Below are positions 24,001-30,000 of a stretch of 64,000 nucleotides of DNA, one piece after another. Position 1 is the first letter of the stretch. Every line of letters begins with the position of its first letter. The DNA lies in assembly GCA_963726745.1 (NCBI GenBank), contig CAVSDR010000003.1:960001-1024000 (forward strand), read 5' to 3'. The stretch is from an uncultured Verrucomicrobiae bacterium (GTDB lineage: Bacteria > Verrucomicrobiota > Verrucomicrobiia > Chthoniobacterales > UBA10450). The position numbers were made by a program.

Positions 24001-27000
24001 CCTTCTCACCGGGATGCCAGCCGATCGCCGTGGGATAAAATAGGAGCTGCGCGCCGCGCAACGCGGTCAACCGCGCCGCTTCCGGATACCACTGGTCCCA
24101 GCAGACACAGACGCCGATGTTCCCGCGCTGCGTCGCCCAGGCCTTGAAGCCGAGATCGCCGGGCGTGAAGTAAAACTTCTCGTAGAACGACGGGTCATCC
24201 GGGATGTGCATCTTGCGATACTTCCCCATGAGCGAGCCGTCGGCGTCGATGATCGCGGCGGTGTTGTGATACAGCCCCGCGGTTCGTTTCTCGAAGAGCG
24301 AGGCCACGATCACCACTTTGTGCTCGCGCGCGACCGCGCTCAGCGCGTCGGTCGACGGCCCGGGAATTTCTTCCGCGAGCGCGAAGTTCGCGTGATCCTC
24401 CGACTGGCAAAAATACTGCGAGCGAAAGAGCTCCGGCAGGCAGACGATCTCCGCCCCTTCCTCCGCCGCCTGGCGAACGAAGCGCACTGCCTTCTCCAGG
24501 TTGGCCGCGGGTTCCACCCCGCAGCTCATCTGCACGAGCGCGACCCGCGAACTTGCCGCGGCCATCGTTACTTCACCGAATCAGCCGGCACGATCTTCAC
24601 GCTCTCGAGCGCGACTCGATTCACCGGCTTGCTGCGCTCGCCGCCGTTGCTCATCGTTACCGGCACGTTCGCCAGCTTATCGAGCACGTCGTCGCCTTTG
24701 ATGATCTTCCCGAAGGTGGTGTATTGCCCGTCGAGCTGCGCCACTTTGCCGAAGCAGAGGAAGAACTGGCTCCCGGCCGAATCCGGATCGCTCGAGCGCG
24801 CCATCGAAAGCACTCCGCGCTCATGCGCCTTTTTGTTGAATTCCGCCTTCACCTTGTAGCCCGGACCGCCCGTGCCCCAGCGGCTTTCGGCCGCGGGATC
24901 TTTCGTGAGGGGATCGCCGCCCTGCGCCATGAAGCCCTTGATGATCCGATGGAACGCGGTCCCGTCGTAGAAGCCTTCCTTCGCGAGCTTCTTGAAATTT
25001 TCCACCGTCTTCGGGGCCACGTCCGGCCAGAACTCGGCGACCATTTCTCCTTCGCTGGTCTTGATGATGGCGACTTCTTTGGCGGCGGGACTGGATTCTG
25101 GCGTCATGGTTGGTTTGGCTGTGGTGGAAGGTGATGGACTGGCCTCCTCGCTGCGGGCATTCGTCACTCCAAGAGCAAGCGCCGCGAGGCAACCGAGCAA
25201 GACGGATTTCATGTTGTGACCACTTCCACGAAGTGCGGGCGAAGTCACGCGGGATATCGGCCGGGCTGCCAGAGGCCGGCGATCTCCGGCAAACCGAGCG
25301 CGAGGTTCATGCACTGCACCGCCTGGCTGGCCATGCCTTTCCCGAGATTATCCAGCGCCACCAGGATCGCCGCCGTGCCGTTGGCGCTGACAAACGCGAC
25401 GTCGGCGAAGTTGCTCCCCGCGACCGCGCTCACGCGCGGGCTCCCTTCCACGATCCGGACAAACGGCCGGTCGCGGAAGACCGTCGCTACCCGGGCGGCA
25501 AGATCGACCGCCTCCGGCAGCTGGCATTGCACCGTCGCGAAAATCCCGCGCACGAACGGCCCGCTGTGCGGCACGAAGGAAAACGTCCCCTTGATCTCGT
25601 TTGCCGACATCATCAGCGCCACCTCCCGGTCATGCTGGTGCGCGAGCATCTTGTAAGCGCGGTAATCGCCCGCGCGCGTCGGATGATGCGTCCCGGCCGC
25701 CGCGACCGTGCCGCTGCCACTCGAGCCGGTGACCGCGCTCGCCGCGATGAAGCCGACCTCCAGCCCGCGCAACGGGAGCAGCGCCAGCTGCAAGGCGGTG
25801 GCAAAACATCCCGCGCTGGCGATCCGGCGCGCGCCTGCGAGCTGCTCGCGATTCCATTCCGGCAAGCCGTAAACGAAGCGCTCGTCGAAGCGAAAATCCG
25901 CCGCGAGATCGATCACGAGCGCGTGGTCCGGCAGGTGGCTTTCGAAAGTAGGCAGCAACTTCGCCAGCTCGCCATGCGGCAAGGCCGAGAAAACCACCGG
26001 TTGCTCCGCCTGCGCAAAATCCTTCCACGGGATCTCGCTCTCAAAATTTCCCGGCACCACCCCGAGCAGATTCGGGTGCGCTTCCGCGAACGGCTTGCCG
26101 CCTAACGAGCGCGACGTCCCGCGCACGCTGGCCACGTTCGGATGCAACGCGAGCCAGCGGAGCAGTTCGCCGCCGCCGTAACCGGAAGCGCCGAGAATGG
26201 CGACGTCGAGCTTCATTTGCTGCGCAGGTGCGGCCGCAATTTCTCGAGCACGAAATCGCCCAGTTGTTTCGCGTTCGTGCGCGCGTTCACCGCGGGCAGG
26301 CCTAACGACTCCACGAAACGCGTGCCCACGCGGTTGTCCGTCGCCGGGCCGGTGACGACGTCGACGCTCAAGCCAAAAGCGTCGCGAAAATGCGTTACCG
26401 CACCGGCCACGCCCACCGGATCGTTCGCGCAGAGCACGTGCAGCTTCCCCCAGGCCTGCAGCTCCGGGTCCTTCAAGATCGTCTGCACGCCGTACTCGCC
26501 CATGATCCCGTCGCCTGTTTCTGCGATGATCAAGTCCACGTCGCGCGCCGCCAGTTCGCTCAAGATCACGCGCGCCAGCCGCCCCGAAGTGTCCGGCCCG
26601 GTGCAGGCCACGCCTGCATCGGTGAAATCCAGGACCGCATCCGCGCCGTAGTCGCGCATCGAGAGGATGTCGCGTTGCAAACTCACGCCGGTCAGCTTCG
26701 CCCCGCCAACCTTGTAGCCTTCCTGCGAAAGTCGCCGGACGAGTGCACAAGCCGCATGCGTTTTCCCCGCGTTCATGCAGGTGCCGGCGATGTAAACCAC
26801 CGGGACCGGCTTCGCGTCCGGCCGGCCCTTGATCGCGGCCGACTCGATCGTGGCCGGCTGCCCAATGCGGCTGCCAAATTCCGGGAAGAGCAGCACCTGC
26901 CCGAGAATCTCCACCTCGAACGGCTTGCCCACATCGGGGCTGCCGGAGATCGCCTGCCCGATCACGCCACCGACGTTCAGGAGATTGAGCGCGTCGCCTG

Positions 27001-30000
27001 TTTTCACCGCGGTCGGCATCACGCCTTCGTAGCCTTGGAGCGCGTTGCGATGGCCGAGCGCGCCCACGATCACGTCGCCATCATGGAGCACGCTCATGCG
27101 CCCGTGCACATCTTCGAGCTGGTTGTAGACGCTCTTCTCGCCGTGCACCCGGCCGACTACCACCGCGCCCGGTCGCACCTCGATCTCGTCGGCTAAAGTC
27201 ACCTGCCGCCCGAGCCGCAAGTTCCGCGTCACGGAGGCAATTTTGTCCAGGTGCGTGCGGATCATGGTTCGTTCCTCTTCATCGCGAGCATCTGCGGCAC
27301 GCCAAAAATTTTCCCGTAGGCCGCCGCTTCCGCGCCGGTCCAAAACGACGTCCCCTCGCCGTAGCTCGCGATGTCCGCGCGCATCAAGCTATGCGGCGAG
27401 CGCACGCCTTCGACCGTGAAACTCCGCGGACTTAAACGCAGCCGCACCTCGCCGCTGACCATCGCCTGGCTGGATGCGAGGAAAGCCTCGAGGTCGCGCG
27501 CCAGCGGATCGAAGAATTGCCCTTCGTGCAAGAGCGAGCCGTAGAGATTGCCGAGGTTTTCCTTCCAGAACATCTGCTTCCCGGTGAGCACGAGCTTCTC
27601 CAGCTCGCGATGGGCCGCGATCAATAAATGCGCCGCCGGCGCTTCAAAGCCGACCCGCCCTTTGATCCCGAGAATGGTGTCGCCGAGATGAATTCCGCGC
27701 CCGATGCCGAACGAGCGGCCAAGCGCATTCAGTCGCTCGATGATCGCAACCGCGTCCAACATCTCGCCGTCTAATTTCGCCGGCACGCCCTGCTCGAATG
27801 CGATCACCAGCGTGTGCGACGGCGTCGCCGGGTCGATCGCGCCGCCGGGATAAGCCTCCTCCGGGAGATGCTGCCACGAGTCATGCGTTTCCTTGCCGCC
27901 GATGCTCGTGCCCCACATCCCTTCGTTGAAGCTGTATTGCTCCACCTTCTCCGGAAACTGGAAGCCGCGGGCATCGAGGTAGGCGCGCTCTTCCGCGCGA
28001 GTCGGCGCGAGGTCGCGGATCGGCGTGAGAATTTCCAAGCCCGGCGCGAGCGTGCGAAAGGCCACGTCGAACCGCACCTGATCGTTGCCCGCGCCGGTGG
28101 AGCCGTGCGCGAGCGCGCCCGCGCCGATCTCCTGCGCATAGCCGACCACACGCCGCGCCTGGCAGACGCGCTCCGCGCTCACCGAAAGCGGATACAAGCT
28201 GCCGCGCAGGACGTTTCCGAAAAGGAGAAAACGGATGTAATCGCGGAAGAGTTCCTCACGCGCATCGATCGTCCGGTGCGAGGCCGCGCCCAGTTTGCCA
28301 GCGAGTTCTTCGATCCGCTGGAGCTCCGCGGCGTCGAAGCCGCCGGTGTTGACCGTGACCGTGTGGACTTCGCGGCCCTGCTCGCGCAGCCAGAGGACGC
28401 AGTAGGAAGTGTCGAGGCCGCCGGAGAAAGCGAGGAGGGTTTTCATTTCCAATCGAAAAGGTCGGCGGTTTTCTGCGCGAGGAACTGCCGGCGCTCCGCC
28501 AGCCAATCCCGGCTGCGCGACAGCCCGTCGGCTAACGAGTCATAATCCGGCGTCTCGGCCGCGGAGGATTCTGCGGAAAACTTTCCGCGCTGGAGCTGTT
28601 GCGCGACCTGCTGGTAAGCGTCGCGGAAGGGCGTGCCTTCTGCCGCCAACCGGCAGGCTTCACGCGCCGCCTGGAGCTCGTCGGTGCAGGCCGCCGCGCA
28701 AGCTTGCTGGTTAATTTCGAGGCCCGGAAGAAGATGCGTCAGCACGCGGAAAAGCTCTTCGCCTTTCGCAGTGATCTCGAGCAGCGGCGCCTTCAGCAGT
28801 TGCTGGTCGCGGTGATAACTCGAGGGCAATCCGCCCGCGAGTTGCCCGAGCAAGCCGGCCAGCCCGCGCAGTTCGCGGCAGCGCGCTCGCGCCAGCTCGA
28901 GCACGTCGGGGTTCCGCTTCTGCGGCATCAAACTCGAGCCAGTGGTGAAAGCATCCGGCAGCCTAACGAATCCATATTCCTCCGTGCTCCAGACGAGCAA
29001 ATCCCAAAGCGCCTTCTCCAGCGTGCCGCCGGCGGAAGTGATCCACGCCGCCAGCGCTTGCTCGTGGCGCCCGCGGCTGTTCATCACATCGATCGGGCTG
29101 CGCTGCGCGCGCGAAAAGCCGAGCAGCTCGGCGCTGCGCTCGCGGTCGAGCGGGACGGGCGATCCGAAGCCCGCGGCCGCGCCCAGCGGGGAACGATCCA
29201 GCCGCTGCCAAAGTGCTGGCAGTTGCTCCAATTCCTCGAGCAAACCTTCCGCAAAAGCGGCACCCCACATTCCCCAACTCGAAGGCATCGCCGGCCGCAT
29301 ATGGGTGTAGCCCGGCAGGACGATCGCCCCATGCTTTTGCGCGAGCGCGAGAAAGGCCGCGGCGCAGCCGTGCAGCGCCTCGCCCAGGTCGAGCAGGCGC
29401 GCGCGCATGAGCAAGCGGAGCGCGGTTTGCACCTGGTCGTTGCGCGAGCGCGCGAGATGAATCCGGCGCCCGGTCGCGCCGAGCTTGGCGGTCAAGGCGG
29501 CTTCCAGCGCAGTGTGCCCATCTTCCTGCTCGGGCGTGATTGTGGGCGGATTTTCTTGCAGCGTCCGCAATTCCCTAACGAGTGCTTTCGCTTCCGCTTC
29601 CGGGAGCAGGCCGGTCTCGCCGAGCATGCGTGCATGCGCCGCGCTCGCTTCCGCATCAAAGGGCAGGAGCGCGAGATCGGTCACGCGATCGTTCCCGACG
29701 GTGAACGCATGGAGCTGTGCATCGAGCGGCAGGTCCTTGGCCCAAAGCGACTCAGACATGCGCCACCTCCGCTTGCGCGACGCGCGCGAAATACTCACGG
29801 GCCAGCTGCGCGTAAAAACCGGCGCCGGCGTCGAGTTCCGAGAGAAGCAAATACTCGTTAGGCCGATGGCTCCGGTGAGTGTCGCCGGGCCCGGCCTTGA
29901 CTGCCGGGAGATCACGCAGGAAAGCCCAGTCCGACGCGGTCGCAGAACCGATCGACTCACGCCGGCCTGCGGCCGCGAGGGCGGCCTGCACGATCGCTTC

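Follow-up and report, generated by a model that had tools for sequence, protein, structure and literature searches.

A P-loop protein encoded between argG and argC as a predicted N-acyl-L-glutamate synthase of arginine biosynthesis

N-acetylglutamate is usually made by ArgA, which is of the GNAT type (TIGR01890), or by ArgJ (PF01960). In the LysW route the amine of glutamate is blocked by an ATP-dependent ligase, ArgX, which therefore provides a precedent for an ATP-driven first step. Another glutamate-acylating enzyme, the D-glutamate N-acetyltransferase DgcN, is to our knowledge the sole characterised N-acylating enzyme with the C-terminal fold of the protein described here, the product of gene X. 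We predict, with a probability of roughly three in four, that X performs the missing first step of an arginine pathway as an N-acyl-L-glutamate synthase of neither the GNAT nor the ArgJ kind, with succinyl as the most likely acyl group. The idea of a first enzyme is already published as a prediction, Appendix 2 of the GapMind 2026 preprint assigning this role to the X family (bioRxiv 10.1101/2024.10.14.618325). Judged by its alignment with the Steroidobacter denitrificans protein UniRef100_A0A127FCT3 (= AMN48216.1, P0325; 46% identity over 342 aa, E 2e-97), X is an orthologue of the protein predicted there.

The arg operon and the spread of X

The window, a 64,000-nucleotide stretch of a contig from an uncultured Verrucomicrobiae bacterium, carries X on the minus strand (26213..27265) as a 350-aa ORF with its ATG at 27265. 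The local operon order, assigned with Pfam and NCBIfam profiles, is argD-argF'-argB-M20-argH-argG-X-argC, and the sequence itself shows ATGA junctions that give X a 4-nt overlap with argG and another with argC; ORF, junctions and gene order all agree with an earlier note on this DNA. All remaining steps from N-acylglutamate to arginine are encoded adjoining X, likewise on the minus strand. Directly upstream is argG, for argininosuccinate synthase (27262..28506; TIGR00032, 299.6 bits), and directly downstream is argC (25245..26216; TIGR01850, 270.6 bits), both over the cut-off. Pfam and NCBIfam profiles also identify argH, for argininosuccinate lyase (28443..29960), and an M20 deacylase of the ArgE/DapE type (29752..30822), which is likely the N-acylcitrulline hydrolase. 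As listed, the argH ORF starts too far upstream, with the family match beginning at residue 95. The N-acylglutamate kinase gene argB (30819..31736; TIGR00761, 206.5 bits) encodes a 305-aa protein to which no acyltransferase domain is fused, TIGR01890 covering only positions 5-280. Further upstream lie argF', for a SOTCase-like N-acylornithine carbamoyltransferase (31721..32707; NF003384, 406.7 bits), and argD, of the acetylornithine/succinylornithine transaminase family (32714..33838; TIGR00707, 338.3 bits, below the 410-bit cut-off).

X itself matches no Pfam or NCBIfam family over cut-off, as had been noted. Its top Pfam match is DUF1611 (E 0.0034, 17.3 bits against a 25-bit cut-off, residues 146-186 only), with MobB, CbiA and AAA_26 scoring close to it; the matches to NCBIfam mobB and bioD are sub-threshold, that to TIGR00347 (BioD) reaching 16.1 bits against a cut-off of 83.3.

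Homologues of X had been thought rare, which proved wrong: the family is widespread, counting thousands of proteins from nine phyla or more. At least 3408 relatives were found among 90%-identity clusters (8000 candidates scored), and at E <= 0.001 X also hits 1394 of the 50%-identity cluster representatives. X is a genuine gene. A scan of genome contigs gave 450 relatives, from which the best 80 loci, all from other genomes, were kept. By their labels, these best 80 loci belong to Verrucomicrobiota, Acidobacteriota, Pseudomonadota, Planctomycetota, Gemmatimonadota, Myxococcota, Bdellovibrionota and Elusimicrobiota, with one bin labelled Bacillota. In 74 of the 80, argG lies directly upstream on the same strand as X (the rest being four contig ends and two divergent arrangements), and in 74 argC lies directly downstream (the other six being contig ends). 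Rare fusions of X with an AA_kinase domain (P0196) or with ArgC (P0199, P0273-P0275) lend weak support to a role in arginine synthesis. An M20 gene is present in 39 of the 61 X clusters long enough to judge; in the other 22, which lack it, the gap that X fills could conceivably be another or a further one. Two paralogues only distantly related to X (28-30% identity) lie outside arg operons in genomes with ArgJ; the wider superfamily therefore has other functions. A distant paralogue is also found overlapping the gene of an M20 peptidase, away from any arg operon.

Domains and conserved motifs

The AF2 model of X has a pLDDT of 97.7 and comprises two domains. The N-terminal domain (residues 1-145; 26831..27265, minus strand) is all-beta, with a pLDDT of 93.6 when modelled alone, and its invariant residues among 80 sequences include K44, Y47, E51, R56, D64, R73, Y79, P84, N97 and R133. 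Compared with the PDB, the model of this domain reaches a best VIA Z of 3.2, with none of 48161 chains at Z >= 5, and Foldseek returns nothing at E <= 0.001; its profile matches no PDB sequence at E <= 10. As modelled, the domain is new, without a counterpart among solved folds.

The C-terminal P-loop domain (residues ~150-350; 26213..26818, minus strand) is of the dethiobiotin-synthetase (DTBS)/DUF1611_C type. Its VIA Z scores are 17.0 for 2g0t, 16.1 for 1a82, 15.9 for 3of5, 15.7 for 3fgn, 15.6 for 2obn, 15.5 for 7dpt and 14.8 for 7xrj. Among the structural matches, DTBS stands at 15.7-16.1, CTP synthase at 15.5 and formate-THF ligase at 13.7; HypB (14.7), ApbC (14.5), UreG (14.3) and SRP GTPases also match. 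The structures 7xrj, 2g0t and 2obn align over 176-183 residues. The match to DUF1611 structures had been taken, from 2obn, to span both domains, but about 176-181 residues align, no more than the C-terminal domain by itself would provide, and the lone N-terminal model matches nothing. In hhalign comparisons, with small template alignments of 5 BioD and 7 DUF1611 sequences, X matches BioD with 87.6% probability (E 3.5e-6, 130 columns) and DUF1611 with 18.6%. A profile of 83 X sequences places M. tuberculosis BioD on top of the PDB sequences (E 1.5e-4), with no DUF1611 chain at E <= 10. By profile comparison the C-terminal domain is nearer BioD than DUF1611, and with an unmatched all-beta N-terminal domain, X can no longer be described as a two-domain DUF1611 member.

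The Walker A motif GTCMNAGKT (G161-T169; 26759..26785, minus strand) aligns with GTDTGVGKT of BioD, and G161, M164, G167, K168 and T169 are invariant in 80/80 orthologues. K190, in KLTG (26696..26698, minus strand), is also invariant and aligns with the lysine of the BioD motif 'yKP', which we take to be K37 of E. coli DTBS. At the end of a hydrophobic strand, the Walker-B-like motif E249-T-G-D-G253 (26507..26521, minus strand) aligns with 'EGaGG' of BioD, its E249, G251, D252 and G253 being invariant among the 80 sequences. GKT, K190, D199, D205, E249 and D252 are all conserved in 80/80.

The missing first step and its chemistry

In the window's own genome, which is 94.7% complete and in 7 contigs, PF01960 (ArgJ) has no match, and TIGR01890 (ArgA) finds argB alone, with 116.5 bits where the cut-off is 202.85; the absence of both enzymes reported earlier was thereby confirmed. 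Among 48 X-bearing genomes, many of them MAGs of unstated completeness, neither ArgJ nor full ArgA (TIGR01890 over cut-off) was found; these genomes were picked from the 80 loci closest to X and form neither an independent nor an unbiased sample. Their TIGR01890 matches are confined to the ArgB kinase portion and to weak fragments of GNAT type. The search for the NAT-type synthase PF04768 gave 0/48 but is uninformative, its control having matched nothing anywhere. In the window's phylum 149 of 151 sampled genomes have ArgJ, the window's genome being one of the two without, and a genome of the same family (G096) has ArgJ and lacks X. This settles the worry that relatives without X would need another source of N-acetylglutamate.

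The earlier note had regarded X as the missing glutamate N-acetyltransferase. X stands as the best candidate for the N-acylating first step, given argG-X-argC in 74/80 loci and ArgJ or full ArgA in 0/48 genomes; ArgF' speaks against the acetyl part. At the position of Glu92 of X. campestris AOTCase, ArgF' has Pro89 (codon 32441..32443, minus strand), as seen on alignment of 'nadrPehl' with 'dgdtEehi' of 3kzc and 'dgdtPehi' of 3l04 (Glu92 being chain index 112 in the structures, owing to a 20-residue tag), and among PDB sequences the Pro variant 3l04 matches it best. Among 63 X-linked ArgF' proteins covering the site, this residue is A in 39, V in 11, P in 9, S in 3, G in 1 and E in none. AOTCase acts on succinylornithine instead once E92 is replaced by A, P, S or V (Shi et al. 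2007, as given in bioRxiv 10.1101/2024.10.14.618325), a rule that stems from mutagenesis of one enzyme; the preprint reports that 70 ArgF' proteins likewise lead to succinyl. Because the ArgF' of the same operon bears a succinyl-type specificity residue, the acyl group of this route is probably succinyl rather than acetyl. It is true that NF003384 names ArgF' an N-acetylornithine carbamoyltransferase and that the structural relative DgcN is an acetyltransferase by its PDB title, but with Pro at the E92 position, Glu in 0/63 and the preprint in agreement, it is unlikely that X makes N-acetyl-L-glutamate for an N-acetylcitrulline route.

As a succinyl-transferring synthase, X would block the amino group of L-glutamate to yield N-succinyl-L-glutamate; ArgB, ArgC, ArgD and ArgF' would then act on the product, and the M20 enzyme would later take succinate off N-succinylcitrulline. 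By analogy with DgcN, which has the same fold, we lean slightly towards succinyl-CoA as the donor (succinyl-CoA + L-Glu -> N-succinyl-L-Glu + CoA), at somewhat less than even odds. The ADP part of CoA would then occupy the P-loop site, and the basic residues K44, R56, R73 and R133 of the N-terminal domain would hold carboxylates. Against this donor, X lacks the N-terminal domain and motifs of DUF1611 (GKT versus GK[M/K/R]) and is nearer BioD by profile.

Nearly as likely, though again at less than even odds, is an ATP-dependent ligation of free succinate, in which X would keep its pathway role with other chemistry, as a succinate:L-glutamate ligase. Succinate would be phosphorylated in the P-loop site and the resulting succinyl phosphate attacked by the glutamate amine, giving N-succinyl-L-glutamate, ADP and Pi, so that succinate released by the M20 enzyme would be re-used and CoA would be unnecessary. 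Such phosphorylated-acid chemistry is that of DTBS, CTP synthase, CobQ and formate-THF ligase, three of which are among the structure matches of X. The closeness to BioD in both profile searches, the alignment of P-loop, K190 and E249-x-G-D-G with BioD, and the invariance of the residues listed above argue for ligation, as does the lack of a DUF1611-type N-terminal domain; in DgcN and the remaining DUF1611 structures the motif reads GKM or GKR, so that neither Ser nor Thr comes directly after the lysine, and 7xrj was deposited as a putative NAD-dependent epimerase/dehydratase family protein. However, the hhalign templates are small, and the Z scores of DTBS and DUF1611 are tied within ~1. DUF1611, although reported to use acetyl-CoA, also retains the P-loop lysine and a glutamate like that of Walker B, and P-loop conservation is therefore no proof of NTP use. 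No adenine-recognition motif was identified in X, and we know of no free-acid N-acylglutamate ligase.

The matches to HypB, UreG, ApbC and SRP GTPases would also suit a SIMIBI-type accessory protein (a HypB/UreG/MeaB-like metal or cofactor chaperone) or a regulator serving the M20 or another arg enzyme, with an unrecognised GNAT elsewhere in the genome as the synthase. GNAT-type PF00583 has 14 matches in the window's genome, all of them outside the window, one of which could be a short, unrecognised N-acylglutamate synthase, and the paralogue that overlaps an M20 peptidase gene also fits an accessory role. But X is retained in the 22 clusters without M20, and its N-terminal domain, which is large and invariant and includes four basic residues that never vary, is more suggestive of substrate binding. 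No GNAT occurs in any of the 80 X clusters, nor among the ORFs of 15 gaps of >=350 nt inside X clusters (4 ArgR, 1 PDDEXK nuclease, 2 ArgC/ArgD pieces and 8 that match nothing), and the clusters thus offer no rival candidate. If X were accessory, the window's genome and the 48 others, drawn from many phyla, would have no explained first step, and we consider this reading very improbable.

Comparison with known systems

ArgA and ArgJ have the pathway role proposed for X, and their distribution and that of X are mutually exclusive; both are unrelated to X in sequence and fold, X being a P-loop protein, neither GNAT nor Ntn-type like ArgJ. BioD is the best sequence-profile relative, with an alignable P-loop GKT, post-strand-2 lysine and E-G-x-G-G. 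It is a single domain of ~220 aa that closes a ureido ring, whereas X has two domains and 350 aa and lacks the substrate-binding parts of BioD; the window's genome carries its own bioD elsewhere. DgcN (7xrj) and other DUF1611 proteins (2g0t, 2obn) have the C-terminal P-loop fold in common with X, and N-acylation of glutamate by DgcN is the reaction type also proposed for X. However, true PF07755 members score 238-253 bits, their motifs are GTDCxxGK[MKR], RATGQTG and EGQGS in place of GTCMxxGKT, KLTG and ExGDG, and they have no counterpart of the all-beta domain; DgcN uses D-glutamate and an acetyl group, X probably L-glutamate and another acyl group. The S. denitrificans protein A0A127FCT3, a full-length homologue, belongs to a phylum other than that of X (Verrucomicrobiota, Chthoniobacterales), both functions being predictions, and S. 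denitrificans is said to lack the M20 deacylase present in the window's cluster (bioRxiv 10.1101/2024.10.14.618325). The protein resembles X in its place in an arg cluster, in the absence of ArgA and in the succinyl-type residue of ArgF'.

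Gene X and its operon

The gene under study (g01384) is an open reading frame of the minus strand at 26213–27265, with its ATG at 27265, and encodes a protein of 350 amino acids, hereafter X. Since ATGA is read in the sequence at either end of X, the gene overlaps both argG (27262–28506, minus strand) and argC (25245–26216, minus strand) by 4 nt. The operon runs on one strand in the order argD, argF′, argB, M20, argH, argG, X, argC. Its other members are argD (32714–33838, minus strand), argF′ for an N-acylornithine carbamoyltransferase (31721–32707, minus strand; NF003384, 406.7 bits), argB (30819–31736, minus strand), whose 305-aa product is a kinase only, a gene for an M20 ArgE/DapE-type deacylase (29752–30822, minus strand), and argH, located on the minus strand between M20 and argG; the neighbours of X were assigned with Pfam and NCBIfam.

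X scores above no family cut-off of Pfam or NCBIfam. DUF1611 matches residues 146–186 only, at E 0.0034 and 17.3 bits (cut-off 25), MobB, CbiA, AAA_26 and bioD give similarly weak matches, all at the P-loop, and neither ArgA (TIGR01890) nor ArgJ (PF01960) is found among the matches at E ≤ 0.1. An earlier note on this DNA had described the reading frame, its operon place and its weak family scores, and the figures were reproduced wherever they were repeated.

Directly 3′ of argC, the same strand carries a cyclophilin-type peptidyl-prolyl isomerase and a carbon-nitrogen hydrolase (23681–25314, minus strand), the latter nearest to N-carbamoylputrescine amidase (TIGR03381, 303 bits, under the 410-bit cut-off); the pair also follows argC in two close relatives (loci L017 and L018). 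Directly upstream of argD lies the only carB of the genome, for the large subunit of carbamoyl-phosphate synthase, in three pieces (33835–37844, minus strand). The pieces are three separate ORFs corresponding to CarB positions 2–482, 504–701 and 700–1048. A stretch of ~230 aa separates CarB position 482 from 504; it shares the frame of the first piece and carries a match to an IS200/RAYT-like Y1 transposase (PF01797, E 4e-6; NF047646, E 3e-16), after which the reading returns to the CarB oligomerisation domain and then the frame changes. The reading frame shifts near 35530 and near 34940, which may reflect indels of the assembly or genuine breaks in the gene.

Conserved arginine context and the distribution of ArgA and ArgJ

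A word-indexed search, with 8000 candidates scored, found at least 3408 relatives of X at E ≤ 0.001, and 1394 were found at this threshold, 846 of them at 1e-10, when the 50%-identity representatives were searched exhaustively. The 120 relatives listed are unnamed or 'hypothetical', and none has a Pfam domain. With a 9-sequence alignment as the query and one genome per species, 450 relatives were located; the best 80 loci were kept, and the arg proteins of the window were placed on them by tblastn. According to the record labels, these best 80 of 450 loci include Chthoniobacterales, Thermoanaerobaculia, Phycisphaerae, Gemmatimonadota and Bdellovibrionales, the Holophagaceae Geothrix limicola, G. 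rubra and Holophaga foetida, as well as Corallococcus terminator, Lysobacterales and Steroidobacteraceae.

In 74 of the 80 loci X is immediately preceded by argG on its own strand (the remainder being four contig ends and two divergent arrangements), in 74 it is immediately followed by argC (the remaining six being contig ends), and argG-X-argC is found in 74/80 loci of other genomes. Two layouts dominate, argD-argF′-argB-(M20)-argH-argG-X-argC and argG-X-argC-argD-argF′-argB-(M20)-argH. Of the clusters, 39 contain M20 and 22 lack it between argB and argH; the other 19 loci are too short for judgement. No GNAT was found among the ORFs of the 15 intra-cluster gaps of at least 350 nt, which comprise four ArgR, one PDDEXK nuclease, two ArgC/ArgD pieces and eight without any match. 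Seven fused forms of X were found, each in a single-member cluster: X with a kinase (protein P0196), X with ArgC (P0199 and P0273–P0275), part of ArgG with part of X (P0276) and one with no assignable partner (P0272). With gene overlaps of 4 nt, one indel is enough for a fusion, so these forms are weak evidence.

In a quick, unrooted tree of 80 X sequences, X of the window and three Verrucomicrobiota form a group with 100% support. This group stands amid Holophagaceae, Vicinamibacterales and gammaproteobacterial bins with a support of just 83–89%, and phyla are interleaved. Such a pattern fits operon transfer between phyla; given the 83–89% support and the lack of a root, no donor is named. 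Two record labels attract attention in the same tree. The X of locus L023, from a 9-Mb genome labelled Comamonas sp. KCTC 72670, forms a pair (99% support) with the Corallococcus terminator protein, the two cluster layouts are the same, and the genus label may be wrong for the organism. The X and arg cluster of locus L041, labelled Bacillota bacterium MAG97, group tightly with gammaproteobacterial bins, which may point to a mis-binned contig or to a transfer of the operon.

The genome of the window (94.7% complete, seven contigs) has no match to ArgJ, and TIGR01890 matches argB alone, scoring 116.5 bits where the cut-off is 202.85. The same searches were run on the genomes behind 48 of the 80 loci, the 32 loci left out being mostly short contigs. 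Neither ArgJ (the control was positive in 10 of 14 reference genomes) nor TIGR01890 over its cut-off was found in any of these 48 X-bearing genomes, for which completeness figures are not given; in all 48, TIGR01890 matches the kinase part only, plus some weak GNAT fragments. PF04768, the NAT-type synthase, is at 0/48 as well, a result that says nothing because its control matched nowhere.

Within the phylum of the window, ArgJ is present in 149 of 151 sampled genomes, and the genome of the window is one of the two without it. Three of the 151, the window's genome included, have an X-like gene at E ≤ 1e-10. The other two, in genomes G081 and G102, are distant paralogues of 28–30% identity located outside arg operons, and both genomes have ArgJ; genome G096, from the same family as that of the window, has ArgJ and no X. 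The G102 paralogue (locus L110, 6124–8294) comes after a flavin reductase and overlaps an M20 peptidase gene at that gene's end, and the G081 paralogue (locus L111, 6914–7939) lies between a CNNM/CBS protein and a ketol-acid reductoisomerase, with one TGA inside the match. The wider X family probably acts on other substrates. The objection raised earlier, that relatives without X need another route, is answered by this distribution: the relatives use ArgJ and the lineage of the window carries an X-type operon. In this phylum X marks a replacement, with ArgJ near-universal and the window's lineage having an X-type, succinyl-type operon.

We therefore predict, with a probability of about 0.75, that X is the first-step N-acylglutamate synthase of the arginine pathway. 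The earlier note had put X forward as the missing first-step enzyme, and the context bears this idea out. It is because of the context that the role is well supported; the chemistry is something that we infer.

Fold and invariant residues of X

The AlphaFold2 model of X, built from an 83-sequence alignment, has a pLDDT of 97.7 and a pTM of 0.93, compared with a pLDDT of 63 for the earlier model from a 3-sequence alignment. By DSSP on this model, residues 1 to ~135 (a domain modelled as 1–145) are all-beta, and residues ~150–350 form an alpha/beta P-loop domain. The best solved matches of the whole model span the C-terminal domain only, with 176–188 residues aligned: the DUF1611 protein 2g0t (Z 17.0), E. 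coli dethiobiotin synthetase (DTBS) 1a82 (Z 16.1), the DTBS structures 3of5 (Z 15.9) and 3fgn (Z 15.7), the DUF1611 protein 2obn (Z 15.6), CTP synthase 7dpt (Z 15.5) and the D-glutamate N-acetyltransferase DgcN, 7xrj (Z 14.8). On the model, the DUF1611, DTBS, CTP synthase and DgcN scores are effectively tied. Formate-THF ligase is also among the matches, and the top ranks of Foldseek are occupied by SRP GTPases, DTBS and HypB.

The N-terminal domain alone was modelled from 53 sequences with a pLDDT of 93.6. In the VIA comparison its best Z is 3.2, none of 48161 chains reaching Z ≥ 5; Foldseek gives no match at E ≤ 0.001 (best 0.53), and the profile of the domain finds no PDB sequence at E ≤ 10. 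In the ESM Atlas no named cluster was found, the best score of 0.84 falling on uncharacterised fragments, and the clusters returned were solely those of the X family itself, mostly unnamed. No DUF1611 chain is among the matches of this domain (best Z 3.2), an absence that does not prove a different fold. X had been described as a two-domain DUF1611 member; the C-terminal P-loop fold of that description stands (Z 14.8–17.0), whereas the N-terminal domain matches nothing convincing, so that X is probably not a two-domain DUF1611 protein.

Which P-loop family is X closer to? The best PDB sequence match of the X profile is BioD of M. tuberculosis (E 1.5e-4), and DUF1611 chains do not appear in the list at E ≤ 10. 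By hhalign, X aligns with five BioD sequences at 87.6% probability (E 3.5e-6, 130 columns) and with seven DUF1611 sequences at 18.6% (E 1.3e-3), the DUF1611 and BioD alignments matching each other at 93.6%. These profile comparisons suggest that X is nearer to BioD than to DUF1611, and the ranking is suggestive only since the template alignments are small. A six-frame search over 22 genomes gave no match of X to PF07755 at E ≤ 1e-5, whereas true DUF1611 proteins in X-bearing genomes score 238–253 bits.

The P-loop reads GTCMNAGKT in X and GTDTGVGKT in BioD, compared with GTDCxxGK[M/K/R] in DUF1611 including DgcN. After strand 2, X has AKLTG and BioD yKP, where the DUF1611 proteins have RATGQTG; the Walker-B-like motif is AETGDG in X, EGaGG in BioD and EGQGS in DUF1611. 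All three DUF1611 motifs are thus absent from X, which also stays below the BioD-type cut-offs (TIGR00347, 16.1 against 83.3 bits; PF13500, 13.7 against 27). X and BioD have in common the GKT of the P-loop, a lysine following strand 2 and the E-G-x-G-G motif (hhalign columns 156–288 against 4–146), and the residues of X aligned there are invariant. We take the equivalent residues of E. coli DTBS to be K15, T16, K37 and E115. Over the 80 arg-linked orthologues, the invariant residues of the C-terminal domain are G161, M164, G167, K168, T169, K190, T192, D199, D205, E249, D252, Y258, D282, T309, D310, N311 and N327, and those of the N-terminal domain are S11, K44, Y47, E51, R56, D64, R73, Y79, P84, N97 and R133. 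C163 was considered as a catalytic cysteine and set aside; it is Cys in 78 of the 80 orthologues, Ser in two, and variable in the wider family.

Acyl group, chemistry and comparison with a predicted family

The best PDB match of ArgF′ of the window is 3l04, the N-acetylornithine carbamoyltransferase (AOTCase) of X. campestris. Chains of this enzyme differ at one site, 'dgdtEehi' in 3kzc, 'dgdtPehi' in 3l04 and 'dgdtSehi' in 3l05, where ArgF′ of the window has 'nadrPehl'. Because of a 20-residue tag, index 112 of the chain stands for residue 92, and Pro89 of the window's enzyme thus occupies the Glu92 position. Replacement of Glu92 by A, P, S or V turns AOTCase to N-succinylornithine (bioRxiv 10.1101/2024.10.14.618325, citing Shi et al. 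2007). Among the 63 of 80 loci covering the site, the counts are 39 for A, 11 for V, nine for P, three for S, one for G and zero for E; 62 of 63 have A, V, P or S, and the lone G belongs to a 30%-identical protein of doubtful alignment (L055). Judged from this tally and the Glu92 switch, the pathway beside X is most likely the N-succinyl variant, in which case X would make N-succinyl-L-glutamate. The acetyl group assumed in the earlier note probably gives way to succinyl, with Pro89 in the window and E in 0/63 loci.

By what chemistry would the succinyl group be attached? Our tentative choice is a DgcN-like transfer, in which X would take succinyl from succinyl-CoA to L-glutamate. DgcN is the sole N-acylating relative known to be characterised and is reported to use acetyl-CoA (PDB title, preprint wording), and all known enzymes of the first step use a CoA thioester or transacylation. 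It is also possible, if doubtful, that X is an ATP-dependent succinate:L-glutamate ligase, an amide-forming P-loop enzyme activating free succinate through an acyl phosphate, with a DTBS-like domain and a previously unseen all-beta substrate domain. ATP-dependent acyl-phosphate chemistry is usual in the group of DTBS, CTP synthase, CobQ and formate-THF ligase. The invariant Thr after the P-loop Lys, absent from DUF1611, the closer BioD profile and the apparent loss of the DUF1611 N-terminal domain argue for such a ligase. However, the P-loop Lys and the Walker-B-like Glu are conserved in DUF1611 too, hence these residues are no proof of NTP use. If X were a ligase, the first arginine step would be independent of acyl-CoA in at least nine phyla and succinate released by the pathway would be recycled.

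That X is merely an accessory chaperone or regulator of SIMIBI type, with an unrecognised GNAT performing the first step, seems very unlikely. The genome of the window does have 14 GNAT matches, none of them within the window, yet with this explanation 49 genomes would still lack an account of the first step, and the retention of X in clusters without M20 would go unexplained. Many genome annotations are well known to miss the first arginine step, and the X family would fill this gap in many soil and water bacteria, cultured Geothrix, Holophaga, Corallococcus and Steroidobacter included, with a protein that is no relative of ArgA or ArgJ.

This function has already been predicted. The GapMind 2026 preprint (bioRxiv 10.1101/2024.10.14.618325, version 2026-07-02) names ACG33_RS14135 as a predicted alternative ArgA, on the grounds that its homologues are virtually always within arg operons and never co-occur with ArgA homologues, that Foldseek gives a weak match to 7XRJ, and that position 92 is A, P, S or V in 90% of 70 neighbouring ArgF′. 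In the excerpted text the function is termed a prediction and no assay is given; 'succinyl-CoA' is absent from the text of the preprint, so the acyl donor is not discussed there (bioRxiv 10.1101/2024.10.14.618325). Among the titles and abstract openings listed by a search on succinylglutamate synthase, this preprint alone concerns the X family. Since the prediction precedes our analysis, X of the window is a new member of an already predicted family. What is new here is the structure model, the N-terminal domain without a solved counterpart, the suggested closer tie to BioD and the list of invariant residues, which together make it testable at the bench whether the acyl group comes from a CoA thioester or from free acid plus ATP. 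The preprint's protein is our homologue P0325 (AMN48216.1 / WP_066922137.1 / UniRef100_A0A127FCT3). X shares 46% identity with A0A127FCT3 over 342 of 350 aa (E 2e-97), and like ACG33_RS14135 it is located in an arg cluster, in a genome with neither ArgA nor ArgJ, beside an ArgF′ with a succinyl-type residue.
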